Source: an uncultured Desulfobacteraceae bacterium (GTDB taxonomy: Bacteria; Desulfobacterota; Desulfobacteria; Desulfobacterales; Desulfatirhabdiaceae). Taken from it: a DNA stretch of 32,000 bases. Made by a program: the position numbers and the translations under genes. The notes beneath the pieces were generated by a model that ran no database searches, was not told where the DNA came from, and saw only the letters and a program-made list of their open reading frames with translations. Positions 4,757 through 29,299 of the stretch are shown here, in pieces. Position 1 is the first letter of the stretch. Each line of letters starts with the position of its first letter. Location of the stretch: assembly GCA_903909505.1 (NCBI GenBank), contig CAIVVZ010000485.1, positions 9,347 to 41,346 of the forward strand. Direction: 5' to 3'.

Positions 4757-5098
4757 ATGATAGTCAAACCAGCTCGAACAATGAAAACACACCCTCCTCA
4801 CCCGATTCCCGTCGTCCGTCTGATTGTCCCCGATGACACCGGTCGCGTGCTGATCTTGCGCCGAAACCACATCGGCTATGCGGCCGGTGACTGGTGCCTG
4901 CCGGGCGGCAAAATCGATTACGGCGATACCGTGGAAGAATCCGCCCGCCGGGAGTTGTTTGAAGAAACCGGACTGACCTGCACAGAGATGAAATTCCTTT
5001 TTTACCAGGACAGCCTGCCCATGGAAGCCGAGGAAATGCATTGTATCAACTTCTATATAGAATGCCGGTGCTCGGGAGCCATCACCATGAACGAATAA
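4757..5098 (+). CDS. NUDIX hydrolase, ended by an in-frame TAA; the frame continues to 5227
   Basis: Nudix box 'GGKIDYGDTVEESARRELFEETGL'. After the TAA at 5096-5098 the same frame stays open for 42 more codons ('SSEFEWIRPVDFAKYSLAFRNDEALQWY...') to TAA at 5225-5227. This stretch looks like the normal NUDIX C-terminus. Confidence 0.75.
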   Translation: MIVKPARTMKTHPPHPIPVVRLIVPDDTGRVLILRRNHIGYAAGDWCLPGGKIDYGDTVEESARRELFEETGLTCTEMKFLFYQDSLPMEAEEMHCINFYIECRCSGAITMNE

Positions 5099-5268
5099 TC
5101 CAGTGAATTCGAATGGATACGTCCGGTTGATTTTGCAAAGTATTCACTGGCTTTTCGAAATGACGAAGCTTTGCAGTGGTACGGGCAATACCACAAGGAT
5201 TGGCGATCCGGTGAAGCATATCATTAATAGATCAACGTGGTAATTACCTGCATTATGAGGAGACGAAT

Positions 5269-5652
5269 ATGAATTATTTCTTACTATTTATTTGGATTGT
5301 ATTTATATCGTTTGTTTTCATAAGATTTGGAACTTTGTATGGCGTTTTAAGTATTCTCGGATCATTTATTCTTAACAAAATGTTGATGATGACCCCGTTT
5401 GGAAAAAGAAGAATAGTAATGAGGAAAATATTAAAGGAAGTGAACAGAGAATTCCCAGGAGGAATAATAAATTCAGGTGGGCGACAAATAAGTGTTTGGG
5501 AGGTTGGACCTCCAGATTATGTTTGGACCAGATGGTCGAATCTTGAGCGAGAAATCTTTGAAGAAATAGCCGCAAAACAAAGTCATCAAAGGTCTTATCA
5601 GAAGGCAGCAATTAAGTATCTTAGGAAGAGGAGTAGTGATTCCAATGATTGA
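5269..5652 (+). CDS. Small hypothetical membrane protein in an AT-rich patch
   Basis: 127 aa with a GAGGAG RBS. The N-terminus is hydrophobic (about 2 TM: 'FLLFIWIVFISFVFI', 'GVLSILGSFILNKML') and the tail is basic. I recognise no family. Confidence 0.45.
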   Translation: MNYFLLFIWIVFISFVFIRFGTLYGVLSILGSFILNKMLMMTPFGKRRIVMRKILKEVNREFPGGIINSGGRQISVWEVGPPDYVWTRWSNLEREIFEEIAAKQSHQRSYQKAAIKYLRKRSSDSND

Positions 5653-5770
5653 AAGAAAATTTACCACTGGCTGGAGCATGGAGATCGCTGGACGGGTTTT
5701 CTGTTCCCGGCCAGTACAATTTCTCACTGTTCAAGATGAAGTTTAAACCTAATGAGAGAGGAGTAGATCA

Positions 5771-6562
5771 ATGGCTGAACATGCAAAATCTCAAGAACAG
5801 GTGCTGTTGGTTGGTCTCGATGAGAATTCTATTGGTGCTCTTCGAAATACGGCAGCTCGGTATCCGCTATCTGATTGTGGAATTAATAATATACAGGAGT
5901 TTTTTGGTAGCGCGCTGGATCAAAGCTGCTCATTGTTTGCAAACTCTTGTGCGGCTGTGTTCGTTGTGAGTCCGGAAGCGCTCGATTCCAAAGAATTTAG
6001 ACATTGTATTGAGCAGGCAGTAACAGAGGTTCGCCAGCGAATCGACTTTCGATTGCTGATTCTTCTCCAAAGGATAGACCGGGACATGTTTTTTCATACT
6101 GAGGGGTCGGGGGCTAAGACAGTGAAGATAATCATGCGGAATGTACACGTCACCGGATTGCAAGACCCTGAAGACGTAATGCGTGAGTTAGTCAATTATT
6201 CTCGAACGCTACCCTCACGACGAAACATATACTCGGCTCGTCTTCGAAACCTTCGAATCAAAACAGGTATCTTCCATACGTCTCAATGGCTCAATCGTGC
6301 TTTGATTTTTGGTCTATTTATAGCTCTTGCCTTCAGCCCGGGGCCACTGTTTCGCGAAGGTTACCACCTGAGGCAGGCATTGGTGGTTATGTTGTTGATG
6401 GGGCTGGGCGTCGCCAAGGCAATGCCTGCTGTGTTGAGTCGAATCACATGGGGGCGTGGCGCATATTGGAATTCAATACTCGAATTTCGCTTTTGGTGGT
6501 CTGTTGCTACGCTTGTCATTGCTTGCTGGCTGAGCTTCCACAACTCGGCTTACTTTGGCTAA
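5771..6562 (+). CDS. Membrane protein with a divergent TIR-like N-terminal domain and about 3 C-terminal TM helices
   Basis: 263 aa with a GAGGAG RBS. 'AAVFVVSPEALDSKEFRHCIEQAV' followed by 'FRLLILLQRIDRD' matches the beta-D/alpha-D/beta-E pattern of TIR domains (xxVLSpxxxxSxWCxxE). The usual FISY-type first strand is absent. TM helices fall at about 6280-6540. Confidence 0.55.
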   Translation: MAEHAKSQEQVLLVGLDENSIGALRNTAARYPLSDCGINNIQEFFGSALDQSCSLFANSCAAVFVVSPEALDSKEFRHCIEQAVTEVRQRIDFRLLILLQRIDRDMFFHTEGSGAKTVKIIMRNVHVTGLQDPEDVMRELVNYSRTLPSRRNIYSARLRNLRIKTGIFHTSQWLNRALIFGLFIALAFSPGPLFREGYHLRQALVVMLLMGLGVAKAMPAVLSRITWGRGAYWNSILEFRFWWSVATLVIACWLSFHNSAYFG

Positions 6563-6565
6563 CTG

Positions 6566-7759
6566 GTGGTCGGATTCCTTGGCTGCGGGTTATTATCAAT
6601 GATTCGGCGCGAAAATACTAATGCAGCCATTGAACTAAAAAGTCTGAACAATGCTGCAGTCGATCAGTTTTCGCCAACAAATATTTCACGGTCTTGTAAG
6701 GCTGTCGACCATTGGGTAAACGGGGCAGCTCACGCGAGATCACAGTTCTACGAGAACTGTCCTTTGTTGACCCAGCCAGCGAAGAAGAAGTCGGTTTTAA
6801 TCAGTTACTCCCACCACGGTGAATGGGGGCCATCGACGGCCTGCGAACTCTCGCGGTTCTGCGCTCAACATGACATAGACTATTTTATTGATGAACACAC
6901 GATTCCCGAGGGTAGCGCCTGGCCGTTTTGGGTGGAGTTTGCAGGTATTCGCCAATGTGGGCTCTTCGTCTTACTGTTGGATAAATACAGCGCTTCCAGT
7001 GGCTGGACAGCAACAGAAACCGAATTCGCACTTCGTTCTATCTATGAAGTCGGCAGCCCGTATATGGTTGTCGTTTTCGAGCCAAGCTACCTCGAAGACA
7101 ACGATGATCGCAGTGAAACACTGCCGGTTTTTCACGCTATTTGCTCTCGCCTGATCGGCACTTACTACGGTCAAGGGGCCACAGCACTACCTATGTACGC
7201 ACCACAGCCATGTTTCGGTAATAGGGAAAGCCTCGAACACTTGAAGAAGCAAATCCGCGATATGACCTTTGGTACCCCTGGACTTATGGGATATAGTGTA
7301 TTTCGGGTCCTCTGCAGAATCAGCGTCGTAATGGAACACAGTGTTGCCCTGCTAACAGCCTTGGGAATGTTCCTGATCTACTTGAAATTTTTCCAACCAG
7401 ATGTCCTGCTGGCTTATTTATCACCGAACTTGGCCATCGCACTATCGAGCGTTTTTTTGTTCTCCTTCGGCTATCAATTGCGTGTTGGCTGGATTGTCTA
7501 CACAACGAGGTGTCAGACTGCTGAAACTACTCCGCTTAGGCATCGTATTAACGCTATCTGGTCTCCATGTGTCCTTCTGATTTCCCTCCTATCCACCAAT
7601 ATTTTTCAACAATTATCATGGGCTGCACGGATCGCGTCGTTGCTCATGCCTGCTTTTGGTTGGTTTGCAAATCGATTTAGCGCCAGGGAAGACAGACTCG
7701 CCCCTGTCTGGTCGATAGTGTCACATAGCCAAGCGGTTTATGGTCTGAAGAAAAAATAG
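6566..7759 (+). CDS. TIR-domain protein with about 4 C-terminal TM helices
   Basis: 397 aa. 'KKKSVLISYSHHGEWG...DIDYFIDEHTIPEGSAW...FVLLLDKYSASSGWTATETEFAL' has the TIR core motifs, including the conserved Glu. The C-terminal 160 aa are strongly hydrophobic. The start is uncertain: GTG at 6566, or in-frame ATG at 6599. It begins 4 nt after the preceding stop. Confidence 0.75.
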   Translation: MVGFLGCGLLSMIRRENTNAAIELKSLNNAAVDQFSPTNISRSCKAVDHWVNGAAHARSQFYENCPLLTQPAKKKSVLISYSHHGEWGPSTACELSRFCAQHDIDYFIDEHTIPEGSAWPFWVEFAGIRQCGLFVLLLDKYSASSGWTATETEFALRSIYEVGSPYMVVVFEPSYLEDNDDRSETLPVFHAICSRLIGTYYGQGATALPMYAPQPCFGNRESLEHLKKQIRDMTFGTPGLMGYSVFRVLCRISVVMEHSVALLTALGMFLIYLKFFQPDVLLAYLSPNLAIALSSVFLFSFGYQLRVGWIVYTTRCQTAETTPLRHRINAIWSPCVLLISLLSTNIFQQLSWAARIASLLMPAFGWFANRFSAREDRLAPVWSIVSHSQAVYGLKKK

Positions 7760-7998
7760 AAAGTTGGAAGTAAGTTATGTAAGTGCAACAGATATTACGG
7801 CACTCAAAACATGCCTTAATGGTTGGTTTTTCACCGACAAGGCCACCCGGCAGGCATCACCGTATGATATGGATGCTGGAGCCATATGAATTAACAATAG
7901 ATAATCAATTTACTCCTGCTGGATGTCTTATTCTGCAAAGCCTTGCAGTCCGCCGGATGAACAAACAATCTCCAAGTCTATCTAAAAAGGAATCGACC

Positions 7999-10635
7999 AT
8001 GAGCACTTTTATTGATCCAAAATGGCACGATAATCAGATACAACACTTCACCAAGGTCCTGCCCCACTATCAATCTTATGCCCGGTTGATGGAAGACATC
8101 CTTTCCGCTGCCTGTAAGCTCTATGCCCCTTTGGCCATTGTCCAGGCCCGGGCCAAAAACCAGTCCAGTTTCGCGGAGAAGGTAGTGCGCAAAGCTGGCA
8201 AATACCTTGACCCGGTCCACCAACTCACGGATCTGTGCGGCGCCAGGGTGATTACTCAGACCCAGGTCGAGGTGGATCGCATCAGTCAATTTATCCAGGA
8301 CAACTTTATCATCGATGTGGCCAACAGTGTGGACAAGCGAGCAACTCTTGGCGTGTCCGAATTCGGATATCTTTCTGTTCATTACATTATCCAGCTTCCC
8401 AGCCGGGAAGACGGCAAGATCATGGGCGTTCCCATCCCGACCGAGCTGATTACCGGTGGATTCAAATCAGAAATCCAGATCCGGACACTGTTGCAGCATG
8501 CCTGGGCCGGCATCAGCCATGACAGCCTGTACAAGAACATGTTCAAACCGCCCGACCAGTGGCAGCGGGAGATGAACCGTCTGGCTGCCACACTGGAGGA
8601 AGCGGACCAGAGCTTTACCCGCTTTGTCAATCGGCTGGATACCTATGCCGCCAACCACGGCGCCTATTTACCGGCTGAAGAGCGCCAGGCTGAAATCGAC
8701 ACCCTGAAAATGATTCTTGAAAAAGAACCCCAACCTGAGTTGAAACCCCGTCATGCCCTGCGCATCGCCGGGATTTGCCGGGCTGCCGAAAACTGGGCCG
8801 AGGTGGTGGACGTGCTGACCCCTTTTGACAAGGAGGATGATTTCCAACTGCTGCGGGAACTGGGTTATGCGCTTTGCCGGGCGAACAGGCAAAATCCCGG
8901 CGGCGCCGATTACCAAAGGGGGTTGCATTTGCTCGAAAAGGCAGGCAGGCTTGACCCTGCAGATGCCCAGACCCATGACTGTCTGGCCTGGACCTTACGC
9001 AATGGCCGGCAAGCCGAAGACAGTCAAAGAGTCCATGAGCATCTGGCCAGAGCTTACGAACTGCAACCCGCCAACCCCTACTATCTGGCGGCCTATCTGG
9101 AAAGCGAGATTCTTTCCCACCAAACTCTCTCCCATATTTCCCTGATGCGCCCCACCCTCCTGAAAGCCATCGACACCTGCCGCGCCCATGTTGAGGCAAA
9201 TATTGAAATTCCCTGTGCCTGTTTTACCATGGGCCGATTCTACCTGTATCTGAATATGCCGGATGCGGGTTTGCTGGCCTATCTGGACGGGATGCGCCTG
9301 TGCCTCTGTGAACAGGGGCCGGCCCAGTACGAGCTGCTTCAGGCAGAGCTTGATTTCCTTTACCAGTTGGAGCGGATCAAAAATTTGTTGCCCGGCTACG
9401 ATGCGGCGATGCGGCTGTTGACCATCGCCAGATTCATCAAAGCCGGATGCCAGGATGTTGACCAGCAGCGCGCCTGTTTACCGGTTGCGGAAAGAAAAGA
9501 GGCGGCGCCTGAATCAAACACGGCTGAGCTGGACCCAGCTGAGATCCAGCGGCAGGAAAAAGCGCGCAGAAGTTTGATAGCATTGATGACGCGGGACATC
9601 ACGTATCAGACGCCCGTGGTGGCGGTTGCCGGGTCCTGCGCCACCGCCGAGGAAACGCACATGCAACAGTATCAGGACATGCTGATCGAGGCTTTCCGCA
9701 ATTACCAGGGGATCATATTTTCAGGGGGCACCCTGAACGGCATCGGGCGACTGATAGGGAACCTGATGGAGAAAATGCCTCCAGACGCCTCCAAACCGGC
9801 CAGTGCCTTTGCCTATCTGCCCCGATACCTGCCGGCGCATGCCAAGCCGGATGCCCGCTATCACCGGCATATCCACACACATGGCCAGGACTTCAGCCCC
9901 CTGGAACCGCTTCAGATGTGGATCGACCTTCTGGCTTCCGGTATCGATCCCCGGCAGGTGAAACTCCTGGGAATCGGCGGCGGAGCCATTTCGGCCTTTG
10001 AGTATCGTCTTGCCATTACACTGGGTGCGCAGGTCGGCATCATTCAAAACAGCGGTCGCGAGGCTGATGCCCTCTTGATTGATTCAAACTGGAAAGCTGC
10101 TGGCTGTCTGCTGCCCCTTGCCGAAGACCGGATGACCATCAAGTCGTTTATCACCGACCCGAATCCGATGATTGCACCAGACCGGATAGAGGAAATGGCC
10201 ATCAATGTCCATGAAGCCTTTCGCCAGCAGCGGATGAAAGCTCCGCGCAAGGAACCCAATCTCCAGCCCTGGGAGAAACTCTTGCCGGATTTCCAAAATT
10301 CCAACCGGCAGCAGGTTGTCTACGCGGTGGAGATCTTGCGTCAGGCCGGGTTCAACATTGAGGTGGCTTCAACCGGAGAAGATTTTATGTCCCCTGATTT
10401 TACCAAAGATGAAATCGATTTTATGGCCGAGATGGAGCATGGCCGCTGGAATGTGGAGCGTCTCCGGTCCGGCTGGCGCTATGGCCCTGAAAAAGATGAG
10501 GCAAGCAAACTCAGCCCCTATTTGATCCCCTGGAAATATCTCAACGATGAAATCAAAGGATACGATCGCGAGGCGGTGTGCAATTTTCCCGGTTTGCTGA
10601 GGCAGGTCGGGCTGAAAGTCGTACGAAAAAAATAA
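7999..10635 (+). CDS. RelA/SpoT-homolog (RSH) nucleotidyltransferase / TPR-like / SLOG (LOG-like) / RyR-domain fusion protein
   Basis: I place the start at ATG 7999, which has an AAAGGA RBS. The track's 7783 start adds 72 aa with no recognisable motifs. RSH synthetase motifs are all present at about 8140-8540: 'ARAKNQSSFAEK', 'DLCGARVI', 'GYLSVHY', 'EIQIRTLLQHAWAGISHDSLYK'. SLOG/LOG glycine motifs lie at about 9600-10070: 'VVAVAGS', 'IIFSGGTLNGIG', 'GIGGGAISAFEYRLAITLGAQVGII'. The RyR-type repeats lie at about 10180-10620: 'INVHEAFR...' and 'EMEHGRWNVERLRSGWRYGPEKDEASKLSPYLIPWKYLNDEIKGYDREAV'. Confidence 0.8.
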   Translation: MSTFIDPKWHDNQIQHFTKVLPHYQSYARLMEDILSAACKLYAPLAIVQARAKNQSSFAEKVVRKAGKYLDPVHQLTDLCGARVITQTQVEVDRISQFIQDNFIIDVANSVDKRATLGVSEFGYLSVHYIIQLPSREDGKIMGVPIPTELITGGFKSEIQIRTLLQHAWAGISHDSLYKNMFKPPDQWQREMNRLAATLEEADQSFTRFVNRLDTYAANHGAYLPAEERQAEIDTLKMILEKEPQPELKPRHALRIAGICRAAENWAEVVDVLTPFDKEDDFQLLRELGYALCRANRQNPGGADYQRGLHLLEKAGRLDPADAQTHDCLAWTLRNGRQAEDSQRVHEHLARAYELQPANPYYLAAYLESEILSHQTLSHISLMRPTLLKAIDTCRAHVEANIEIPCACFTMGRFYLYLNMPDAGLLAYLDGMRLCLCEQGPAQYELLQAELDFLYQLERIKNLLPGYDAAMRLLTIARFIKAGCQDVDQQRACLPVAERKEAAPESNTAELDPAEIQRQEKARRSLIALMTRDITYQTPVVAVAGSCATAEETHMQQYQDMLIEAFRNYQGIIFSGGTLNGIGRLIGNLMEKMPPDASKPASAFAYLPRYLPAHAKPDARYHRHIHTHGQDFSPLEPLQMWIDLLASGIDPRQVKLLGIGGGAISAFEYRLAITLGAQVGIIQNSGREADALLIDSNWKAAGCLLPLAEDRMTIKSFITDPNPMIAPDRIEEMAINVHEAFRQQRMKAPRKEPNLQPWEKLLPDFQNSNRQQVVYAVEILRQAGFNIEVASTGEDFMSPDFTKDEIDFMAEMEHGRWNVERLRSGWRYGPEKDEASKLSPYLIPWKYLNDEIKGYDREAVCNFPGLLRQVGLKVVRKK

Positions 10636-10657
10636 AACCAGTTAATACTGGTTTTTC
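10634..10657 (+). terminator. Rho-independent terminator
   Basis: AAAACCAGT-TAAT-ACTGGTTTT hairpin followed directly by a T-run. It overlaps the stop codon of the RSH-SLOG-RyR gene. Confidence 0.55.
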
Positions 10658-10789: not shown

Positions 10790-13663
10790 ATGAATCCATT
10801 TTCCTGGCTACGAAGGCGCAAAGATGATAGGCATGACGCCGCCATGGTTACACGGCTATCGCAAGCCATTCACCATGGTGAGTTGGGTGAAATCAGGCGC
10901 CTGCTCAGAGAGGGGGTCCGTCCCGATAGTACCGATGGGTCAGAAAGACTACCGATATGCATCGCGGCGGAGATTGGTAACGCACAGGCTCTGGAACTGC
11001 TCCTGGTAAATATCAGCCCGAATGCACTGGACCATGGGCGTCCCCCCTTGTTCTTCTCTGCAGCACGACTCCATATAGACTGTATCAAGCTTCTCCTCGA
11101 ATCAGGGGCAGACACAAATCTTGGGACTATCCAGCACAAGCATTTGAATCGGGAATTTTCCGAAATAGGCTCAACGCCTTTGCATGCTGCAATGCTAGCA
11201 TATAGCCCTCCATATCGAACTACTATGGACCGCTGGATACCTGAAACCCACTATGTCTCAGATGATATCCTCAGAAGAAAACACCAGTGTATTGAGCTTC
11301 TGCTCAAGGCGGGTTCGAATCCCGCGATTCAGAATGACGAGGGAGTCTCCCCCCTGGAGCTTGCACATGATCACCAGAGAGACTTATTATCAAAACATGC
11401 TGAACAATGCCAAACGGATTGCATCCTTGTCAACCCCCACCGGGGGTGGCCAGTATTCATCGCCAGCCGCCTCAGATCTGCGGGTTTGAAGGCTTTCGGG
11501 ATCTGCTCAGAAACGCCACTTGTTGACTGGAAACATGAATTGCTTGAGCACTGTAGTCCACGAACTTTAATTCTGGCAGAAGGCGATGGGATCGGCGATC
11601 TGTGCAAGCGTCTGACCGGTCAGAGCATGATAGACCTCCGTCACGATCTGAAACCGGGCATCTCAGCCTTCGAACAACTTGAAAACACTTGGAGATTGGT
11701 TTTTCGCTATCTCGATCTCACAGGCGACCAATCAGACTGTCTTTTCGGATTACGAAATCGAGACAAAACGTTCGATATTTTTGTTAGCTATAAAAGCCAA
11801 GATGTAAGAGCTGCCCGCAAGTTGACAGATGCCCTGTTGCAGCTTGGGCTAAGTGTCTGGATGGCTGAATATGAGGTGCTATTGACCGGCCAATTTGCCT
11901 TCCAGTCATCCATAAATGAAGGGTTGGCATTATCGAAACGTGCCGTGATTTTTAGCAATTCACGGTTCTCTGAGTCAGCCTATTGCCAGATGGAGGTCTT
12001 GCTGGCATTGCAGCTCATTCCAAGTTCGAACGTTCTTGAAATCAGGATGCCAGACGAGCGGCATCGTTTCTCGTCGCTGTTTCAGGAAAGGCCAATCCGA
12101 AGGATCGACTGGGACAACACGAGGCCCGATCTATCCGTTAATGCCGTATGTGAGCTTCTCGACCTCCCAGAATTCACCTGCGCTGGCACTGCCAGTGACC
12201 CTGTTGATTCATCTCATATGGAACTGACCTACCGCGACATCTGTGTACACTTGCAGATCGGTAAATGGCAGGCCCAGCCGAGTGAGCTTAATCTTTGGGA
12301 GAACATCTCCACCACCGCTGCAGAATTCACTATTCCATCCACAGACGATTCTCTGACAGGCCGACTGATGATTATGGACGCTGGCTTCGGAATACCAGCA
12401 GCAGAAGATGGCTCCTTAAAATTCCAGATCTCCCTTGACGATGATCGAGAACTCGCCCGGATCACAAGACAGTGTTTCGCTAACCACCACCGCTTCACTG
12501 CGCAGTTCGAATGCAGGGGAGTTCACATCTGGTGTTGGAGAGGACTAATGATGCCTGCGTTCACTTGGTTTCAGTCACCGCTCCTTTTGGAACCGGGTGA
12601 GTTCCGAGATGCGGCAATAGACACTTCATGGGATTTAGTCCGGCAGTACTCGCTATTTGTTGAGCATCCAGTTTCTGGCAGACGACTGGAGTGCCGCTTT
12701 ATTTTTAAGCAGCGAGGTGGGTCGGACGATGCGGATGAACGCTTTCGCAGATTCCTCGAACACTCTGACCAGATGGAGCAGATCGTATCCTCAACAAATT
12801 TGTCTCAACGACAAGAGCTGCCCTCTACAGACTTGGATCGCCCTATACATGTCGTTGAACGAGCAATCCGTAGAGCTATAGCTCTGATGGTTCTTGTTGG
12901 GCGAGCCTCTGATGAAGAGGAATATGCGGCTGCGGACGCTCCTCTCAGAAGTAAACTGACGGAGCGACTTAAGTCCATCGACGCTTGGATAGAGAACGAT
13001 GAGATAGCGCGTTTTCTCTCCCCGAGGGAGAGAAATCATCTATCGGAACCGTTAGGCAGTTGGCCGCCATATGTCCGGTTGGTCATGAAGCGAAAGCAGG
13101 CTCAGGTACCGGTTCTCCTGTGGCATGCGGGGATCGAACAGCGTCCGGCAGTCGCAACACATCTCCTTGCGGATATTTACAAAACAATCCATTTCGGAGT
13201 GATGGACGGATGGCAAATCCTGGTAGACAAAGCCATGGTCGCCACAGCACCTTCGGGAGGTAGTCTGAGCGATTTTGCAGTTGTCTGCATTATGACGATT
13301 GCCCGACTTCGAAACTTCCGCCAAGGAGTGAAGCATAATCCGAGATTTATTGAGGATTTTGAAGAGCATTTGGCGATGCACCAATGGAAGCGGCCGCTTG
13401 ACGCGACCCTGTTTCGGAGGAGCAGCTCCGGCGATCTGTATCTGTCACTGTTCAACCGGCCAATTGAGCAGATGTCGGATTACGAATGCATTATCGTCGA
13501 AGGTTATTCACAAAATCAGCTCATCGCATGTGATAATTTATCGATTCCATCTCCCGGGAGGGATTTCCGATCACAGTATACTGCGGACGACAACCTGAAC
13601 CGAATTCTACCAGCGTTCGCAACTCAGTACGCCGCTGCATGGCCGGAGGAAATGTGGATATAA
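10790..13663 (+). CDS. Ankyrin-repeat / TIR / large uncharacterised C-terminal region protein
   Basis: 957 aa with an AAAGGAG RBS. Ankyrin repeats fall at about 10850-11400 ('GNAQALELLL', 'TPLHAAM', 'IELLLKAGSNPAIQNDEGVSPLELA'). The TIR falls at about 11770-12150 ('FDIFVSYKSQDVRAARKL...SVWMAEYEV...AVIFSNSRFSESAYCQMEVLLAL'). The last ~500 aa have no motifs I recognise. Confidence 0.8.
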   Translation: MNPFSWLRRRKDDRHDAAMVTRLSQAIHHGELGEIRRLLREGVRPDSTDGSERLPICIAAEIGNAQALELLLVNISPNALDHGRPPLFFSAARLHIDCIKLLLESGADTNLGTIQHKHLNREFSEIGSTPLHAAMLAYSPPYRTTMDRWIPETHYVSDDILRRKHQCIELLLKAGSNPAIQNDEGVSPLELAHDHQRDLLSKHAEQCQTDCILVNPHRGWPVFIASRLRSAGLKAFGICSETPLVDWKHELLEHCSPRTLILAEGDGIGDLCKRLTGQSMIDLRHDLKPGISAFEQLENTWRLVFRYLDLTGDQSDCLFGLRNRDKTFDIFVSYKSQDVRAARKLTDALLQLGLSVWMAEYEVLLTGQFAFQSSINEGLALSKRAVIFSNSRFSESAYCQMEVLLALQLIPSSNVLEIRMPDERHRFSSLFQERPIRRIDWDNTRPDLSVNAVCELLDLPEFTCAGTASDPVDSSHMELTYRDICVHLQIGKWQAQPSELNLWENISTTAAEFTIPSTDDSLTGRLMIMDAGFGIPAAEDGSLKFQISLDDDRELARITRQCFANHHRFTAQFECRGVHIWCWRGLMMPAFTWFQSPLLLEPGEFRDAAIDTSWDLVRQYSLFVEHPVSGRRLECRFIFKQRGGSDDADERFRRFLEHSDQMEQIVSSTNLSQRQELPSTDLDRPIHVVERAIRRAIALMVLVGRASDEEEYAAADAPLRSKLTERLKSIDAWIENDEIARFLSPRERNHLSEPLGSWPPYVRLVMKRKQAQVPVLLWHAGIEQRPAVATHLLADIYKTIHFGVMDGWQILVDKAMVATAPSGGSLSDFAVVCIMTIARLRNFRQGVKHNPRFIEDFEEHLAMHQWKRPLDATLFRRSSSGDLYLSLFNRPIEQMSDYECIIVEGYSQNQLIACDNLSIPSPGRDFRSQYTADDNLNRILPAFATQYAAAWPEEMWI

Positions 13664-13888
13664 AACATTGAGACAGAAGTGTGTGGTTGTTTTTGGGGAC
13701 AGGGACACCACCCAAAAGACGGACGCCACGTTTGGAAAAATCACTTCAGAAACTCCTCTTGCCCTTGTGTCACAGATGCCCGAAAACGGGGTCATATTCA
13801 GTGATGGCATCGAATCGGATTTCCTGCAGTTCAATTCGGGAACCACCGCGACCATTGGCGTAGCTGCGAAGAAAGGACACCTGGTCAC

Positions 13889-14449
13889 ATGAAGGAAACA
13901 GGCAAAGCGGGCGGCATAACCTTCTGGCATCAGAAAGCGTACGCCACGGCATATCAGTTCGCCGCCGAGGCGCACAAAGGTCAGTTGCTGCCGGGGAGTG
14001 ATCTGCCGTACATCGTGCATGTCACTCTGGTCGCCATGGAAATCATGGCGTCGCTACAGTTCGAGCGGCAGCACGACGGCGAGCTGGCTATCCAGTGCGC
14101 CCTGCTTCACGATGTGATCGAGGATACGGCGGTTACCTATGAGCAGGTTGCCGAGACCTTTGGGAAGCGGGTGGCAGATGGCGTTCTGGCCCTGAGCAAG
14201 AACAAATGCCTTGAGAAAACAGCGCAGATGGAGGACAGCCTGCTCCGCATCCGGCAGCAAATGCCAGAGATCCGGATGGTCAAGCTGGCCGACCGGATCA
14301 TCAATCTGCAACCACCATTTCCATCCCACTGGAACAAAGAGAAGATCTTCCGATATCGGCAGAAGGCCATCACGATCTACAAGGCGCTGAAGGATGCAAG
14401 CCCATATCTTTCCCTGAGGTTAAGGATGATGATTTCAGCGTGTGGGTAA
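13889..14449 (+). CDS. HD-domain small alarmone hydrolase (SpoT/Mesh1-like (p)ppGpp/(p)ppApp hydrolase domain only)
   Basis: 186 aa. 'AAEAHKGQLLPGSDLPYIVHVTLVA' and 'ALLHDVIEDTAVTYEQVAETFGKRVADGVLALSK' match the RelA/SpoT HD hydrolase motifs (H...HD...ED). Confidence 0.8.
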   Translation: MKETGKAGGITFWHQKAYATAYQFAAEAHKGQLLPGSDLPYIVHVTLVAMEIMASLQFERQHDGELAIQCALLHDVIEDTAVTYEQVAETFGKRVADGVLALSKNKCLEKTAQMEDSLLRIRQQMPEIRMVKLADRIINLQPPFPSHWNKEKIFRYRQKAITIYKALKDASPYLSLRLRMMISACG

Positions 14450-15506: not shown

Positions 15507-16943
15507 ATGAAAGAACATTGGACAAATGATCACTGGTACGATTTCCTTGACGATCTGAGTTCGAACTCCGGCAGGTACGTGCCAGTCGTCGGGTCCGAAT
15601 TGATGGTGTATCAAGAAGCAGGGAAACGCATTAGTGTTCACCAAAAGTTGGCAAAACGACTGGCTGCTAAACTACGAGTCGATACGAAGGAACTGTCGGA
15701 ACCATTTGGGCTGATTGAAGTTATACGCACTTATCAATTGCGCCGCAAAGATTTCGTTTCCGCCAAGCCTTACTCCTCTATCGTGGAAATTCTTAACGAA
15801 GAAAAATGGCCCATTCCCGAACCTGTGCGCAAACTGGCATCCATTCGGCATTTCAATTTCTTTTTGAACGCCAGTTGGTTGCCGTTTCTTAAGCTCGCGC
15901 TGGAGCAGGAACGGCAATTCCCAGTGTTTGAGGCAAGCAATATCGTGGGGAAGCCGATGCAGGACTTTGATGATGAAAGTATTGGTGTCGGTCTCTGCGT
16001 ATTCAACTTGTTTGGCAGTGCATCGGCATCATCTTCGGCCAATTCAAACACATTTTCGGTCACCGATGATGACTTACTTGAGTGTATGCATCGCTTGCTG
16101 TCCAACCCTCCATCGAGAACGAGTGCCCACCTACTCGAAAAGAACCGTGAGTTACTTGTTTGGGGATGCAGTTTTTCCAGTTGGTTGGCCCGTTTTTTTC
16201 TCTATAGCCTTGTCAGGACAGTTCCCCTCCAAGCCGGCCAGGCGCGCCGCATGCGGGTGGTTGCAGACGGGCGCTGCACCGGTGATGATTCCTTGCAAGC
16301 GTTTTGGACCAGTCTCAATGCTCCCATCTACGACGGAGAATCCGCAGTGGATTTCATCGATGAGCTTTTTGAACGGTGGCACAAGGAGTTTCCCGCCGTA
16401 CCGGACCCACTGGCGGACGCGCCCCAGTCAATCCTCCTGGACCATAATCCTTTTTCGACCGGAGAAATCTTTATCAGTTATGCGCGAAAAGACGCAGAAG
16501 CGGCAAAAGAAATTGCGGCATGCCTCAGAAATAATGGATTATCGGTCTGGTTGGACTTGGACTGCCTTCAGAATGGTGACCTCTACCGCGCCAAAATCCG
16601 GTCCAACATTCAATATTGTTCTTGTTTCATCCCCCTGATCTCCTCTGAAGCCATTGGAAATGTCGTGGAACTCGGCTTCATGTACAAAGAGGAATGGCTT
16701 TTTGCCAAGGAGCAGGCCGAGTTGAGGCGTGATGGCGGCATGGCGCTTAGCGAATTCATCCTGCCGGTCTGCATCGATCCGAGTATTGATCTCTACGATC
16801 CTCGACTGCCCGACTTTATCCGGGAGCGGCACATCGAGTCATGGGCGGACGGCCCCCCGTCTTCGTGGACCGGGCGAGTGCGAGAGGCCCGCAAGCAATT
16901 TGCAAGAGCAAAAAAGGGGCAACCAAGAAAGGAACAACAATGA
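15507..16943 (+). CDS. C-terminal TIR-domain protein with a possibly degenerate SIR2-like N-terminal region
   Basis: 478 aa. The TIR falls at about 16460-16850: 'GEIFISYARKDAEAAKEIAACLRNNGLSVWLDLDCL...CFIPLISSEAI...YKEEWLFA'. The N-terminal layout ('YVPVVGSEL', 'VFNLFGSAS', 'LLVWGCSFSSW') resembles SIR2_2 strand/loop spacing but lacks the usual His. The stop overlaps the next gene's start (ATGA). Confidence 0.7.
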   Translation: MKEHWTNDHWYDFLDDLSSNSGRYVPVVGSELMVYQEAGKRISVHQKLAKRLAAKLRVDTKELSEPFGLIEVIRTYQLRRKDFVSAKPYSSIVEILNEEKWPIPEPVRKLASIRHFNFFLNASWLPFLKLALEQERQFPVFEASNIVGKPMQDFDDESIGVGLCVFNLFGSASASSSANSNTFSVTDDDLLECMHRLLSNPPSRTSAHLLEKNRELLVWGCSFSSWLARFFLYSLVRTVPLQAGQARRMRVVADGRCTGDDSLQAFWTSLNAPIYDGESAVDFIDELFERWHKEFPAVPDPLADAPQSILLDHNPFSTGEIFISYARKDAEAAKEIAACLRNNGLSVWLDLDCLQNGDLYRAKIRSNIQYCSCFIPLISSEAIGNVVELGFMYKEEWLFAKEQAELRRDGGMALSEFILPVCIDPSIDLYDPRLPDFIRERHIESWADGPPSSWTGRVREARKQFARAKKGQPRKEQQ

Positions 16944-19900
16944 AGAGCACGGGAGCATGCTCAACCGAACGGCCATGGCCGGGTTTATTTTCTTACACCG
17001 AGGCTGATGCAGGCTTTTTCTTCGGCAGGACGCGGGAACTGACGCAGGTCTCATCCAGCATTCTTGCAAATCGCACGACTGTCATATTCGGCCCTTCCGG
17101 AACCGGGAAAACATCTCTACTGCAAGCCGGGGTGTTTCCTGGTTTGCGAGAGAAAGCCATGTTGCCAATTACCGTGCGCCCTCTCGAGTTCAGCCGCTGC
17201 GCGAACTCCCTCTGTACCTACGTCAAGAGTCATTTGCGCGCTAACTGCCTTGAAGAAGGAATCGAACTCGACGAGGAAAGACTTCCGCCCTTGACCTCCG
17301 AAGCAGATGAGTCGCTTTGGGAATACCTCCAACGTGTTGAGATGTGGGGCGCATCTCTCGAACTGGTTGAACCCGTCCTCGTTTTTGATCAGTTCGAAGA
17401 GTGGATGCGTTTGTTTGCCATCGACGATCCGGCCACGCATGAACTTGCCGATGTGATCGAAAACTACGTCCCGCATGCCATCGAGTCACTTCCCCCGTCC
17501 ACAGCGTGGGGGCAGGTTATCGCATCCCGTAATCATCCCTGGCGCGTTGTCTTGTGTCTACGCGAGGATTGCATCGGCCAACTGGAAGACCTCAGCAGAC
17601 GCATGCCTTCCGTCATGCGCAACCGGATACCCTTGCGGCGGATGACCCGCCAACAAGGGCACGAAGTCATCCTTGGTCCTGGTGCTGACATTATCCACAA
17701 AGAGATGGCAGAACGTCTGCTCGATTTTGCCGTCACCGGCGGCCCGCCAAACAGCGGATCCAATTTGCCGTCGATGCAAGACAACCACCCGGTTGAACCG
17801 GCTATCTTAAGCCTGATCTGCCGGGAATTGAACGAAAGACGCATCACAGAGGGAACCCCACAGATCACAGCTCCCGATATGGAAGAAGCGGGGGGCCAAA
17901 TCCTGCACAACTTCTACAAGCAGTGTTTTTCATCGTTCCGCTCATTAACTGCCCAGTGCTTTGTTGAAGATTACCTCATCGACCCCTCGATCACGCCGGG
18001 CCGAACCTTCGCCACAGATGCTCAAGCGATCAACTCAGGGGTGCGCCCGGACGAAATCGAACACTTGATCGGGCAACGTCTGCTCCGACGGGAAACGCGT
18101 CAGAGCGGCACGCACCTCGAACTGAGCCATGACGTACTCATCCAGCCCGTCAAGGAGAGTCGCGACAGCAGGCTGGAACAGCTTGTCCGTGAGGAGGCGA
18201 AACGGACGGCCCGAGAACTGAAAAAACTAAAACGGCAGCGCCAAGCTATTGCCTACATTTTTGCGATCACCGTCGTTGCGCTGGTCATTTCGGTACTTGC
18301 AGTTTTTGCTGTGATCCAGCGAAAGGAGGCGGACCGACAGCGCCGCTTGGTCGAGCTAAAGCTGGATCTGGTCCTTGGTGCCATAGACAAACTAATTTAT
18401 CAGATTCCCGATCAACTGGGCAAGCTGCCGGGCAGCATCCCCATCATCTCCCGCATTCTGGAAGAGAATCTCGATCTCATGCAGCGCCTTCTGCAGTTCA
18501 ATCCCGATTCGGGTTCGCCACGTGCCCAGCGCAATCTGGCCGCCAATCACCTGAAACTCGGAGACCGCTGGCTGCTTATCGGCGACACGAAACACGCCAT
18601 ATCCGCCTATGGCGAGGCGGAAAAACTGCTTCAGACGCTGGACCAACAGCAACAGAGCGCCCGATCGCAACGAGACATTGCCTATCTCAACGAACGCATG
18701 GGCTCGGCACTGCTACGGCGGGGCGACATCGAAGATGCCCGGCAGCGCTACCAGACAGCGCTCTCGATTGACACGGCGCTGTTCAGTCAGCACCCGGATG
18801 AGGTCGAAAACCTGCGCTCTCTGGCGGTGGATTATCAGCATTTGGGGGACGTGGCAGCGCGCGTGGTGGACCATCCCGGCGCCCTGACATTCTATACCCA
18901 GTTCCTATTGGCAGCCGAACGGCTTGCCGACCGACCCGGCACTCCAATGGATCGACGCTACCTGGCCACATCCCAGGACAAGCTGGCCTTGGTTCATGGG
19001 TGGCTCGGGAATCTGCAAGCGGCGCGTTGGCATGCATCCAACTGTGTCGAGCTGACCCGCAGCCTGGCCAACGACGTTCATGATTTGCCGTTTCGACGAG
19101 ATTTTGTCACGGCGCTGCAGAGACTGGGCAATCTCCAGAAGAAAATGGGTGATCCCGGCCAGGCACTGATGACCTTCCGGGAGATGGAGGCCGTTGCCAG
19201 ACAACTGCCGCTGGATCCAGCCAACCTGGACACCCGATTCAACCACGCTTTGGCAATGCGACAAAGTGCCGACTGTCTGGTAGACCTTAACCGTGTCGAA
19301 GAGGCCCTGGCGGTCTATGATGAAACCGAACGGGTTTTTCGTGGCGCCATTCTTGGTGCGGATCCTGAAGACCATACCGTCTATCTGCAGTTGGCGGAGA
19401 TTTTCGGGGGGCGTGCCTGGGCTCATGCTTTGCGGCAAGAACTGAATCCGGCCATTAAGGATTATCTGCGGTGCATCGATACACTGGAGACAATCCCTGA
19501 GATATCACGTGACAAGGTAGTACAGAACAAACTCATGGCCGCCCACACCCGTGTGGCAAAGTTGCTGGACGATCTCGGAGACGTGCCCGGGCGCAACACC
19601 CATTGGCAAGCAGCCGGACACCTGTTCCGCCAGCAATACGGGGATACTTTCCCGGTTGAGGCATGGACGCCCGTCACGCGGGGCCTGCTCTTTCACATCA
19701 TCGGCGAAAGCAACACCACCATCATCGCCGACCTGCGAGAGGATGAGGCGGATAAACACAAGGCGGTACAGGCATCCCGCACACGCGAATCTCTGCGGGC
19801 CTGGAATATGACCTGTGCAAGCCTGGCCACAGCGCTTGCGGATGCGGGCCAATTGCAGGAAGCGGCGCAGATCTACGCGCAGATGCTGGCCACTGCCTCG

Positions 19901-20869
19901 GATTACCTCAAAAACAACGACGATGCAGTGATCCGCGGCGATCTTGCCTACAGCTATCTGAAACAGGGCGAACTCCTGAAACGCGCGGGAGACCGGAATG
20001 GGGCGCTACAGGCACTGACGAGCGCACACGCGCTGTTTAAAAAAGTCGCGGCGGGACAATCCAGGCAGTTCAACATCGTTTACGGTCTTGCCACCATCCA
20101 GCGCGCCCTGGCGGATGAATGTCTTCACCACGCCGCGTCTGGAGACAATCTGCCAAAACGCCTTGAACTTGCCGAAACCTGTCTGGGATACGCCAGCGAG
20201 CTGATCGGTCTGGACGGCGCTCTGCTAAAAACGGGAAAAGCACCCGGAATCAGCGGCATGACGATCCTCCAGGATGCCGAACGCATCGCCCGTCTGTGCA
20301 GCCTGATCCAAAACCGGGAAGAAGCGGCAAAATCGTGGAAACACGTGGGCGATCTATCGCTAACACTCTGGGGGGACGAATCGACCGTTCCCGCAAGAGC
20401 GCTGCTCTTGCAATATGCCAGTACCGCCGCTGACGGTATGTGTGCCGCGGGCCAGCCTGACCAGGCGGTTTCCCTGATCGAGTCCGTGAGCCAGCGCATC
20501 GAGAAAACCATCTCCGGTCCGGCCGACTTCGCAGGGCACCAGCACCTGGCATCGGCCCTTGGTAACCTTTGCTGGCTGCAGCTTCTTGCCGGAAACGGTC
20601 AGGCTGCCATGACTACCGGGTCCCGCGCCGTTGCCCTGATCCCCAATGAGCGCCCCAACCCCGCACGTTTGAACCTTGCCCATGCCTATCTGCTGAGCGG
20701 TTCATTCGACCATGCGAAGGGCCTCCACGAAAAATATTCCGGCACGGTCTTTGAAGACGGCCGACACTGGAACAGCGAGGTGCGTAACGACTTCAGGCTG
20801 TTGCGCGAGGCGGGATTTGACCACCCGGATTTCAAGAAAATCGAGGCGATGCTGAAGGATATGGATTAA
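16940..20869 (+). CDS. STAND NTPase (nSTAND-like P-loop) / single TM helix / long TPR array
   Basis: I place the start at ATG 16940, an ATGA overlap with the upstream stop. The track's 16841 start would overlap the upstream gene by about 100 nt. Walker A is 'IFGPSGTGKTSLLQAG' (about 17090). Walker B is 'VLVFDQFEEW' (about 17378). The TM helix is 'IAYIFAITVVALVISVLAVFAVI' (18247-18316). About 850 aa of TPR-like repeats follow. Confidence 0.8.
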   Translation: MKSTGACSTERPWPGLFSYTEADAGFFFGRTRELTQVSSSILANRTTVIFGPSGTGKTSLLQAGVFPGLREKAMLPITVRPLEFSRCANSLCTYVKSHLRANCLEEGIELDEERLPPLTSEADESLWEYLQRVEMWGASLELVEPVLVFDQFEEWMRLFAIDDPATHELADVIENYVPHAIESLPPSTAWGQVIASRNHPWRVVLCLREDCIGQLEDLSRRMPSVMRNRIPLRRMTRQQGHEVILGPGADIIHKEMAERLLDFAVTGGPPNSGSNLPSMQDNHPVEPAILSLICRELNERRITEGTPQITAPDMEEAGGQILHNFYKQCFSSFRSLTAQCFVEDYLIDPSITPGRTFATDAQAINSGVRPDEIEHLIGQRLLRRETRQSGTHLELSHDVLIQPVKESRDSRLEQLVREEAKRTARELKKLKRQRQAIAYIFAITVVALVISVLAVFAVIQRKEADRQRRLVELKLDLVLGAIDKLIYQIPDQLGKLPGSIPIISRILEENLDLMQRLLQFNPDSGSPRAQRNLAANHLKLGDRWLLIGDTKHAISAYGEAEKLLQTLDQQQQSARSQRDIAYLNERMGSALLRRGDIEDARQRYQTALSIDTALFSQHPDEVENLRSLAVDYQHLGDVAARVVDHPGALTFYTQFLLAAERLADRPGTPMDRRYLATSQDKLALVHGWLGNLQAARWHASNCVELTRSLANDVHDLPFRRDFVTALQRLGNLQKKMGDPGQALMTFREMEAVARQLPLDPANLDTRFNHALAMRQSADCLVDLNRVEEALAVYDETERVFRGAILGADPEDHTVYLQLAEIFGGRAWAHALRQELNPAIKDYLRCIDTLETIPEISRDKVVQNKLMAAHTRVAKLLDDLGDVPGRNTHWQAAGHLFRQQYGDTFPVEAWTPVTRGLLFHIIGESNTTIIADLREDEADKHKAVQASRTRESLRAWNMTCASLATALADAGQLQEAAQIYAQMLATASDYLKNNDDAVIRGDLAYSYLKQGELLKRAGDRNGALQALTSAHALFKKVAAGQSRQFNIVYGLATIQRALADECLHHAASGDNLPKRLELAETCLGYASELIGLDGALLKTGKAPGISGMTILQDAERIARLCSLIQNREEAAKSWKHVGDLSLTLWGDESTVPARALLLQYASTAADGMCAAGQPDQAVSLIESVSQRIEKTISGPADFAGHQHLASALGNLCWLQLLAGNGQAAMTTGSRAVALIPNERPNPARLNLAHAYLLSGSFDHAKGLHEKYSGTVFEDGRHWNSEVRNDFRLLREAGFDHPDFKKIEAMLKDMD

Positions 20870-20949: not shown

Positions 20950-21426
20950 TTGAAATCGATCAACAACACATCACCAGTCTACCAGCATCCGGCTGCGTTA
21001 CTCCAGCACCTCATTCAGTTCGATACCACCAACCCACCCGGCAACGAGGCTGAATGTATCACCTTCAGTAATGGCCTGCTGAACATCCCGGGCAAATTGG
21101 GCAAACAGGTTAGTTTCTTTGATCCGCTTTTACACAACACAGTAGATGCTACCGTTTTGCACGGCAGCGATAAATGCAACGCGATACCGGGCGAAATCTC
21201 CGTGGAACTGGACGGTCGATTGCTGCCGGGTTATCGCCCGGAAGATATGATCGCGGAACTTCATCAAATTGTCGGCAAAGACATAGCGTTTGATGTGATG
21301 ATGCACGATCCAGGGGCATCTGAGCCAGATATGGGGCTGTTCGATACATTGGCCGGCATTTTGCGCAAGGCCGACCCAGATGCAATACCGGTCCCGCTCC
21401 TATGGAGTAAACCATGCCCCACTTGA
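20950..21426 (+). pseudogene. Internally deleted, 3'-truncated M20-family peptidase (ArgE/DapE-like) remnant
   Basis: The N-terminal 'LLQHLIQFDTTNPPGNEAE' is joined almost directly to the dimerisation/C-terminal part ('NAIPGEISVELDGRLLPGYRPEDMIAELHQIV...'). The ~200-aa metal-binding core is missing, and the ORF ends prematurely after 'PVPLL'. Confidence 0.65.
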
Positions 21427-29296: not shown

Positions 29297-29299
29297 AGC

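Follow-up and report, generated by a model that had tools for sequence, protein, structure and literature searches.

A 32 kb stretch of contig CAIVVZ010000485.1 from an uncultured Desulfobacteraceae bacterium, analysed here over its whole length and called the window, encodes a protein in which a RelA/SpoT-homologue (RSH) synthetase domain is followed by a TPR solenoid, a SLOG domain and a tandem RyR domain. The open reading frame (ORF) spans 7783–10635 on the forward strand and includes an ATG at 7999 that gives an 878-amino-acid (aa) product; this ATG is the true start because homologues from many genomes begin to align at residues 1–5. The product is 100% identical to the database protein P0001, and hundreds of full-length homologues with invariant catalytic residues rule out a pseudogene or a chance ORF. 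Probably the RSH protein represents a novel type of enzyme that arrests growth on receipt of a signal. The entire window around it is co-directional conflict-type cargo, with three TIR genes flanking the RSH gene, one of them immediately upstream (Table 1).

Domains of the RSH protein

Pfam, run on the whole protein, returns RelA_SpoT (PF04607) at residues 51–180 (E=6.8e-15, 55.8 bits against a cutoff of 27), RyR in two stretches (E=1.7e-14, 54.3 bits) and, under the Pfam cutoff, LSDAT_prok (“SLOG in TRPM, prokaryote”) at residues 539–590 (E=3.5e-4). Pfam and NCBIfam scans found no HD, TGS, ACT or ribosome-binding domain in the protein; membership of the long RSHs (Rel/RelA/SpoT) is ruled out, as HD, TGS, ACT and ZFD are missing and the C-terminus is TPR-SLOG-RyR. 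An alignment of 57 family sequences (A1) was the input for an AlphaFold2 (AF2) model and the basis for scoring residue invariance. The full-length model has a mean predicted local distance difference test (pLDDT) score of 85.7 and a predicted TM-score of 0.80, and every part of it was matched separately by Foldseek against the PDB. The initial annotation, made from the letters alone, had described an RSH fused to TPR, SLOG and RyR modules, lacking HD and ribosome-binding domains; Pfam bears out the absence of these two, and the AF2 model and Foldseek bear out the fusion.

The four RSH synthetase motifs that had been reported as readable are present in the window protein, the first as ARAKNQSSFAEK and the last as EIQIRTLLQHAWAGISHDSLYK, and are conserved family-wide. 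R51, K53, S57, K61, D78, G81, Y124, H128, E158, Q160, H174, Y178 and K179 are invariant in 57/57 members and align with the matching motifs of RelQ-type structures; the patterns D-x-x-G-x-R, G-Y-x-S-x-H and E-x-Q-x-R-T all occur in the window protein. The domain is apparently an active synthetase. Among solved structures, its core is nearest to RelQ/RelP (YjbM/YwaC): a family profile of the domain, searched against the PDB, gives E=1e-19 to 2e-12 for RelQ/RelP, 5.5e-4 for CapRel (7ztb) and 0.32 for FaRel2, with no match to Tas1, and Foldseek returns 5dec at target-normalised TM-scores of 0.63–0.71, with 6fgk and 6ewz also among the RelQ/RelP matches. The likeness covers residues 40–210 and includes the ATP-binding, Mg-binding and catalytic motifs, whereas identity in the structural alignments is only ~21–23%, the acceptor loop, S-E-F-G-Y, carries two inserted residues when compared with the K-x-S/N-G-Y of RelQ/Rel, and ~680 residues of sensor domains are added; no sign of the RelQ tetramer or of its allosteric site is seen. 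A CapRel-like assignment is ruled out by weak similarity and a different C-terminus and, judged by the profile-against-PDB scores, the protein belongs to none of the validated subfamilies of toxic small alarmone synthetases (toxSAS: CapRel, FaRel, FaRel2, PhRel, PhRel2, Tas1).

Closer RSH cores were found by tblastn against plasmids and phages (30–40% identity over ~170–200 aa), all in proteins of ~325–336 aa that are encoded, among other places, on megaplasmids of Bacillus thuringiensis and Ralstonia, on a Bacteroides plasmid, on a Klebsiella plasmid of 3.5 kb and on a filamentous phage of Vibrio. The catalytic module is therefore part of a clade found frequently on mobile DNA and joined to varied C-termini. 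Grouping with housekeeping small alarmone synthetases, which would have undercut the initial annotation, looks unlikely: the identity to the ~330-aa RSH proteins of plasmids and filamentous phage reaches 40%. The 349-position PADLOC model PDC-S33 matches only at its positions 49–175, the RSH core (E=1.2e-12), which excludes full PDC-S33 membership; the relatives on plasmids and phage show this partial match too. Two of these relatives, from B. thuringiensis plasmid p_4F5-1 (WP_080495965.1) and Vibrio phage 10N.261.45.F7_PE002A (gene 12), are ~330 aa long, share 36–40% identity with the RSH core and keep the F-G-Y of the acceptor loop, with unrelated C-terminal halves; from their sequences, they may act in defence or addiction as single genes of a toxSAS-like kind.

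The solenoid that follows receives no Pfam TPR call in the window protein. Its assignment is based on structure, with Foldseek matches in the PDB to the TPR regions of SPY and OGT, and on homologues, many of which do have TPR Pfam matches.

The glycine motifs of the SLOG domain read VAVAGS, FSGGTLNGIGRLIG and LGIGGGAISAFEY, and G545, G571, G581, G661, G662 and E668 are invariant across the 57 members. SLOG and LSDAT were reportedly defined by Burroughs et al. in 2015, in NAR. Taken alone, the segment just reaches the cutoff of LSDAT_prok (PF18171; 25.5 bits, cutoff 25.4). Of 23 family members, 22 match the model as single domains, the best at 1.6e-9. A sequence-only profile of the segment gave no significant match in the PDB (TRPM2 and TRPM7 at E 0.4–1.4, mixed with eL30 and designed proteins), and it was by comparison of folds that the assignment was settled. 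The model of residues 505–728 alone (pLDDT 92) has as its top Foldseek matches the MHR1/2 SLOG regions of TRPM2/4/5/8 (E from 2.4e-6), several of the TRPM2 structures having been solved with ADP-ribose, followed by the LOG-like entries 1rcu, 2iz5 and 9us2 (TM1055, MCP, YgdH). The SLOG/LOG-like character that had been claimed for the C-terminal region thus holds by hidden Markov model (HMM) and by fold, the structure prediction and Foldseek search proposed as its check now having been run.

The two RyR-type segments, likewise noticed at the outset, form a tandem RyR domain by Pfam, PDB sequence matches and Foldseek. By sequence, the region matches RyR1–3 repeats and a Bacteroides RyR protein in the PDB (1e-16); by fold, both halves align to the Repeat12 structures 6uhi, 6uhh (ATP) and 9l9b (ADP) with target-normalised TM-scores of 0.5–0.63, and the Repeat12 entries matched include ones with ATP, ADP and dantrolene. 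Phage RyR proteins turn up among the viral structure matches. Such phage proteins bind 2'/3' cyclic ADP-ribose (2'/3'cADPR) with nanomolar affinity, or cleave it, and no other ligands have been defined by experiment for RyR domains outside animals (PMC13232231, 2026 preprint). The ligand and catalytic residues of the phage protein RyDEP (H75, W78, H100 and D117) are common to animal Repeat12 (PMC13232231), and RyDEP, other PF02026 proteins, Repeat12 and the window protein have one fold and a tandem or dimeric arrangement in common. Repeat 2 of the latter carries H814, W817 and D856, equivalent to H75, W78 and D117: among 81 RSH proteins, the first is conserved in all 81, the second is W in 75 and F/Y in 6, and the third is conserved in 77. 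The initial annotation had left RyR as an unexplained appendage, which does not stand: RyR is a nucleotide- and cADPR-binding module (PMC13232231) that is shared with co-located effectors. For this reason RyR may be the main sensor of the RSH protein, alone or with SLOG. RyDEP is a sponge or anti-defence enzyme, whereas the module here is host-encoded and fused to effectors (RSH, TrkA with transmembrane region, AAA), and is therefore expected to act as a sensor.

Table 1. Genes, domains and motifs in the window (residue numbers refer to the RSH protein)
Feature	Position	Strand	Basis and remarks
Kinase-trypsin fusion, 1066 aa	1550-4750	+	Protein kinase similar to PADLOC PD-T4-6, plus trypsin-like protease
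Nudix hydrolase gene, interrupted	4757-5227 (up to TAA: 4757-5098)	+	Pfam NUDIX 1.3e-17; conserved neighbour cluster
Low-GC stretch with small hydrophobic ORFs	about 5000-6000		GC 40.8%, vs 55-57% in the RSH gene
TIR gene; C-terminal half hydrophobic, membrane-spanning by eye	6566-7759	+	Pfam TIR_2 5.4e-7; same-strand run
RSH-TPR-SLOG-RyR gene, complete ORF	7999-10635	+	878 aa plus stop; ORF list, Pfam, identical database protein, AF2 model
RSH synthetase domain	7999-8598	+	Residues 1-200; Pfam, profile, Foldseek, invariant catalytic residues; alpha/beta in AF2 model
Motif R-x-K-x3-S-x3-K	8149-8181	+	Lies within ARAKNQSSFAEK, residues 50-61
Motif DLCGARVI	8230-8253	+	Residues 78-85
Motif GYLSVHY	8365-8385	+	Residues 123-129
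Motif EIQIRT...YK	8470-8535	+	Residues 158-179; EIQIRTLLQHAWAGISHDSLYK
TPR-like alpha-helical solenoid	8608-9453	+	Residues 204-485; 14 helices in AF2 model
Disordered linker			Residues 488-508; AF2 model
SLOG domain, TRPM/LSDAT type	9526-10173	+	Residues 510-725; LSDAT_prok, domain model, Foldseek; Rossmann-like in AF2 model
Tandem RyR (Repeat12-like) domain	10177-10632	+	Residues 727-878; Pfam PF02026, PDB sequence matches, Foldseek; two-repeat helical domain in AF2 model
Ankyrin-repeat and TIR gene	10790-13663	+	Pfam Ank_2 8.4e-13, TIR_2 1.2e-12; 155 bp downstream of RSH gene
74-aa ORF	13668-13892	+	Overlaps SAH gene by 4 bp
Small alarmone hydrolase (SAH, HD_4)	13889-14449	+	Pfam HD_4 2.1e-12; 3.3 kb downstream of RSH gene
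Third TIR-domain gene	15507-16943	+	C-terminal TIR_2 3.2e-15; weak N-terminal SIR2_2 0.0099; PADLOC TIR models
nSTAND1-TPR gene	16841-20869	+	Overlaps preceding TIR gene by ~100 bp
158-aa ORF	20950-21426	+	Matches only M20 peptidase dimerisation domain
82-aa TIR-like ORF	21414-21662	+	
AAA ATPase and RyR gene, 883 aa	21912-24563	+	Pfam RyR 1.5e-13, AAA/bpMoxR; second RyR protein of the window
Small TIR-like ORF, 110 aa	24565-24897	+	Local TIR HMM; starts 2 bp after AAA-RyR gene
TIR-NACHT(NPHP3_N)-WD40 gene	25239-28928	+	
AAA_14/DUF4143 ATPase gene	29261-30679	+	

The family and its gene neighbourhoods

The architecture defines a large family. A word-indexed search gave 678 matches, the best 120 of which are all full length at 36–80% identity, and an exhaustive HMM search, run over 1.84 billion representatives at 50% identity, gave 4,613 proteins at E<=1e-30; here too the 150 best are all full length. 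GTDB contigs, at one genome per species, contain a relative in at least 550 stretches, of which the best 80 come from Desulfobacterota, Chloroflexota, Planctomycetota, Verrucomicrobiota, Acidobacteriota, Bacteroidota, Gemmatimonadota, Actinomycetota and KSB1 and, in the archaea, from Bathyarchaeia, Halobacteriota, Methanobacterium and Thermoplasmata. Lineages from anaerobic sediments and soils, spread over many phyla, commonly have a member. Closest to the window protein are uncultured, Desulfobacterales-like members (P0002 at 80%, and a Desulfocicer metagenome-assembled genome at 67%); Desulfotignum balticum, whose protein is annotated “RyR domain-containing protein”, is the only named isolate among the matches listed. 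The spread is patchy and bacterial and archaeal members share 33–40% identity, a distribution that looks like horizontal transfer. The searchable literature holds no experimental study of any member, while an earlier in-silico mention of the architecture is possible. Kaur et al. 2020 mention RelA domains solely as rare effectors of vWA-MoxR systems, Jimmy et al. 2020 do not mention TPR, Nudix or RyR, and the available part of the text and supplements of the Sorek-lab TIR survey makes no mention of RelA, ppGpp, RyR or Nudix.

An exact-sequence look-up of the window protein and of P0001 in the contig index gave no match, and the genomic context was drawn from relatives. Neighbourhoods were compared in 81 loci (the 80 best relatives and the window), in which ORFs were called and clustered and TIR genes were located by local HMM searches; genes separated by no more than 200 bp were counted as one tight run. 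Only one neighbour is strongly conserved, a Nudix protein of 135–155 aa, present in 50/81 loci, as a separate gene in 48 and fused to RSH in two (L042 and L062). In 41 cases the separate gene is directly adjacent on the same strand, and it often overlaps the RSH gene. The exhaustive search adds N-terminal (P0195, P0214), doubled N-terminal (P0245) and C-terminal (P0198, P0235) Nudix fusions, so that, to judge by the sequences, there are at least three kinds of independent Rosetta-stone fusion. The Nudix box is intact in the family partner, and the nearest named families are MutT, NudG and NudI, not the ADP-ribose pyrophosphatases.

In the window itself, the Nudix gene is interrupted by an in-frame TAA (5096–5098) where a relative of 80% identity has GAA, and the next 43 codons are still homologous and in frame; the TAA would be one of a recent nonsense mutation (a pseudogene), a sequencing error or a site of read-through. 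The same gene run as the RSH gene contains a small alarmone hydrolase (SAH) with an intact HD motif that matches the Pseudomonas aeruginosa SAH structures 6yvc/6z3n at E=8.7e-29, and no SAH homologue was found in the other 80 RSH loci. An SAH is what would be expected where the Nudix is broken, provided that the Nudix normally removes the RSH product. Non-orthologous replacement of the product hydrolase is only suggested by this single case.

TIR genes recur as well: 52 TIR-domain proteins occur across 35 of the 81 loci, 46 of them co-directional with the RSH gene and 22 within 650 bp, and 23 loci have a TIR gene and RSH together in one tight run. Pfam TIR_2 confirmed 51 of the 52, ten also match ThsB_TIR, and a Glu is near-invariant; the proteins carry WD40, TPR, ankyrin or apparently membrane-spanning regions. 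STAND NTPases with DUF4062, NACHT, TPR or WD40 are frequent neighbours too, and proteases are also near. Close relatives keep the order Nudix ... RSH and differ in the insertions between and around the two, which fits a modular locus with fast turnover.

Further RyR-domain proteins, present in 30/81 loci, fall into two families. TrkA-RyR proteins (~600 aa) have a hydrophobic, apparently transmembrane N-terminal region, TrkA_N and the same tandem RyR module, homologous to that of the RSH protein over both repeats; AAA-RyR proteins, an AAA ATPase with a RyR domain, occur in 13 loci, and at the four RyDEP-equivalent positions have H in 13/13, W in 12/13 (one F), H in 10/13 and D in 13/13. The gene orders TrkA-RyR/TIR-WD40/Nudix/RSH/TIR (L014) and, as compact operons, TIR-Nudix-RSH-TIR (L015) and TrkA-RyR/RSH/Nudix/AAA-RyR/TIR (L063) illustrate the arrangements.

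The TrkA-RyR family provided an independent anchor: starting from a 10-sequence alignment, loci were collected from metagenome contigs and their neighbours scored by local HMMs, with the 22 loci having at least 3 kb on both sides forming the sample. TIR is present in 12/22 and the RSH protein in 8/22; nine have TIR without RSH and five RSH without TIR. The nine indicate that the RyR module travels with TIR even where RSH is missing, and this test, together with the conservation of the RyDEP site, favours RyR as a receptor for a TIR-made ADP-ribose derivative. TrkA-RyR loci include L014, L017, L053, L058 and L063, among others, and the metagenome loci L087–L166. From its domains, TrkA-RyR could be a TIR-gated, channel-type effector; an ‘ion channel’ effector is given for type X Thoeris in the available part of a TIR-effector scan (10.64898/2025.12.03.692087).

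Proposed ligand gating and its alternatives

The reading we favour, with confidence that is evenly balanced, is that the RSH protein is a ligand-gated pyrophosphokinase and belongs, as one effector, to a Thoeris-like conflict system that is variable and linked to TIR. When triggered, for instance by infection, the TIR proteins would turn NAD+ into an ADP-ribose-derived signal, which the C-terminal tandem RyR, the TRPM-type SLOG or both would bind. Binding would free the N-terminal synthetase, with the TPR solenoid serving as a scaffold or oligomerisation element; the synthetase would then move pyrophosphate from ATP to the 3'-OH of a purine nucleotide, giving a (p)ppGpp- or (p)ppApp-type alarmone that arrests growth. 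The linked MutT/NudG-like Nudix would clear this product, and possibly the ligand, so preventing self-intoxication and resetting the switch, a clearing role that in the window would fall to the SAH; SAH enzymes neutralise toxic small alarmone synthetases through product degradation (PMC7229694). The proposal is built on domain identities and folds, on the conservation of catalytic and ligand-site residues, and on gene linkage and gene fusions. From these we infer the pairing of domains with ligands, the direction in which regulation runs, the acceptor, the product and the role in defence. The earlier idea of a small-molecule-gated RSH, unlike CapRel, is strengthened by the TIR genes, the Nudix partner with its fusions and the SAH.

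The nearest parallel in logic is type I Thoeris, in which ThsA (SIR2-SLOG) likewise joins an enzyme to a SLOG sensor and has TIR genes (ThsB) alongside, and where, as is expected here, a TIR-made ADP-ribose derivative activates a growth-arresting enzyme; the ten ThsB_TIR matches beside the RSH family belong to this likeness. The ThsA effector is a SIR2 NADase, however, rather than an RSH pyrophosphokinase, and in the RSH protein the SLOG is of the TRPM/LSDAT branch, a TPR solenoid and tandem RyR are added, and the Nudix partner is conserved. Within the available DNA, TIR is missing from over half of the RSH loci, and none of the PADLOC Thoeris models matches the window protein. The toxSAS proteins (CapRel, which is fused; FaRel with its SAH antitoxin ATfaRel; FaRel2, PhRel2 and Tas1) share an RSH synthetase on mobile or island DNA, here as the predicted growth-arresting effector, with a product-degrading hydrolase alongside, to which the SAH in the window and the Nudix elsewhere would correspond; CapRel also has a C-terminal regulatory extension on the same polypeptide. 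They are 200–370 aa long, in contrast to 878 aa here, sequence similarity is weak, the partner here is a Nudix enzyme, and the regulatory part of CapRel is a pseudo-zinc-finger domain where the RSH protein has nucleotide-binding SLOG and RyR folds and TPR. By its sequence, the RSH-TPR-SLOG-RyR protein would be a member of neither type I Thoeris nor toxSAS. A further parallel is the TRPM2 channel/chanzyme, whose MHR1/2 SLOG is of the same subfamily and which joins SLOG and a C-terminal NUDT9-H Nudix on one protein with a switched output. The output of TRPM2 is a cation channel and that of the prokaryotic RSH family an enzyme, and the Nudix of the latter is a neighbour or a fusion and is MutT/NudG/NudI-like, not NUDT9-like.

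Several observations weigh against this reading. RSH is alone in its gene run in 24/81 loci and 46/81 have no TIR within the available DNA, so the coupling to TIR would have to be facultative or in trans; moreover, the TIR count of 35/81 is a raw figure, uncorrected for how often TIR genes occur elsewhere in these genomes. At the site equivalent to the phosphate-contacting His of RyDEP, S839, the 81 proteins usually have Ser or Asn (S 53, N 13, T 6, H 6). Given the S-E-F-G-Y acceptor loop, the acceptor need not be GDP/GTP, and the substrate of the Nudix is ambiguous because its sequence resembles NTP pyrophosphatases and not ADP-ribose pyrophosphatases. Finally, the available part of the TIR-effector scan (10.64898/2025.12.03.692087) names no RSH or RyR effector.

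In one alternative, the RSH protein would itself be the source of a signal and not the final effector: activated, for example, through SLOG or TPR, it would produce a 3'-pyrophosphorylated adenine nucleotide to be read by TrkA-RyR and AAA-RyR, with its own RyR giving feedback and the Nudix degrading the messenger. We consider this unlikely, although the homology of the RSH and TrkA-RyR modules, the binding of ATP and ADP by Repeat12 (6uhh, 9l9b) and the allosteric regulation of RelQ by its own product are in its favour, as is the absence of TIR from 11 of the 17 tight runs that combine RSH with an extra RyR protein, which leaves RSH as the sole recognised nucleotide-making enzyme there. It is at odds with the anchor test, where TrkA-RyR with TIR and no RSH is found in 9/22 loci vs 5/22 for RSH without TIR, with the lack of a second RyR protein in 51/81 RSH loci, and with the cADPR isomers being the only ligands defined experimentally for non-animal RyR domains (PMC13232231).

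Likewise unlikely, to our mind, is a housekeeping or stress regulator, in which (p)ppGpp synthesis is tuned to adenine nucleotides, NAD or ADP-ribose via SLOG and RyR, the Nudix is metabolic, and the conflict-type neighbours are coincidental. The proximity of the RSH domain to the (p)ppGpp synthetases RelQ/RelP among solved structures would suit such a regulator, as would the wide occurrence in anaerobic sediment and soil lineages, the binding of ordinary ATP and ADP by TRPM4 SLOG and RyR Repeat12, and the gene runs holding RSH alone or accompanied by Nudix only (23/81 for the latter, 47/81 together). Coincidence does not sit well with TIR genes held tightly co-directional in 23/81 loci, with the RyR effectors, STAND NTPases and proteases around the RSH gene, or with the variable cargo between Nudix and RSH in close relatives; the location of the nearest RSH relatives on plasmids and phages and the patchy, transfer-like spread, with its 33–40% identity between bacteria and archaea, also count against it.

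TPR arrays are common protein sensors, and a toxSAS-like toxin held by autoinhibition and a type IV-like enzymatic antitoxin (Nudix or SAH) could use its TPR to recognise an invader protein, much as CapRel senses a capsid protein, SLOG and RyR then being structural or secondary. This distinctly unlikely reading draws on the tight, often overlapping Nudix-RSH pairs (41/81 adjacent), which resemble SAH-bearing toxSAS operons (PMC7229694), and on the 40% identity of the core to single-gene plasmid and filamentous-phage RSH proteins that partly match PDC-S33; it leaves the enrichment of TIR genes and other RyR effectors unexplained, while the conservation of the RyR ligand-site residues, the SLOG glycine motifs and E668 in bacteria and archaea alike speaks for binding by SLOG and RyR, and 31/81 loci have no Nudix, so that the protein is not obligatorily toxic in its absence.

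A two-tier relay, which we hold to be decidedly improbable, would run as follows: SLOG reads the TIR signal, RSH makes a dedicated adenine-nucleotide messenger pyrophosphorylated at the 3' position, either (p)ppApp-like or an ADP-ribose derivative, the RyR domains of RSH, TrkA-RyR and AAA-RyR read it, and the Nudix clears it. If true, alarmone-type nucleotides would be immune second messengers with RyR domains as their receptors, and the ligand-sensing modules of TRPM2 (SLOG and Nudix) and RyR (Repeat12) would have a prokaryotic origin.

To our knowledge, characterised RSH effectors comprise long RSHs controlled by the ribosome, small synthetases that are constitutive or transcriptionally controlled, and toxins switched by a protein antitoxin or phage protein. 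Gating of the RSH protein by a TIR-derived small-molecule signal, our preferred reading, would be a fourth principle of RSH control, in a family of thousands of distinct members, and would link alarmone chemistry to TIR/NAD+-derived immune signalling. The effectors possibly associated with TIR would be extended by an alarmone synthetase, a TrkA-type membrane protein and an AAA ATPase with one common sensor module. Outside animals, we know of RyR domains characterised so far only as a phage anti-Thoeris protein, and the family offers a testable host-side function for the bacterial and archaeal domain. With SLOG and Nudix mirroring TRPM2 and RyR mirroring Repeat12, it may show ligand sensing before its recruitment to animal channels. 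The hypothesis is directly testable with available cADPR isomers.

Other features of the island

At its upstream end, the window carries the kinase-trypsin gene, a gene type that also flanks the RSH locus in the closest relatives (L084 and L085), a trypsin being found in D. balticum as well. Between this and the RSH gene, the stretch 5001–6000 and the TIR gene that follows it separate Nudix from RSH, which are adjacent in most relatives, and together look like inserted cargo. The ORF at 5269–5652 and the start of that at 5771–6562 appear hydrophobic or membrane-spanning by eye. Downstream, the 158-aa and 82-aa ORFs look like gene fragments, and the N-terminal 420 aa of the AAA-RyR protein have no domain assignment.

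Rfam and tRNA scans of the window were empty, and hence there is no ppGpp riboswitch and no tRNA integration site in it. Promoter-like sites are not above shuffled sequence (9 found vs 11.6 expected) and terminator-like sites are modestly above it (19 vs 11.3); these sites do not yield operon boundaries. A palindrome with a 9-bp stem (AAAACCAGT...ACTGGTTTT) at 10634–10655 overlaps the RSH stop codon and has, for the minus strand, a terminator-like score; a terminator working in both directions and a regulatory hairpin separating the RSH and ankyrin-TIR genes are both possible.

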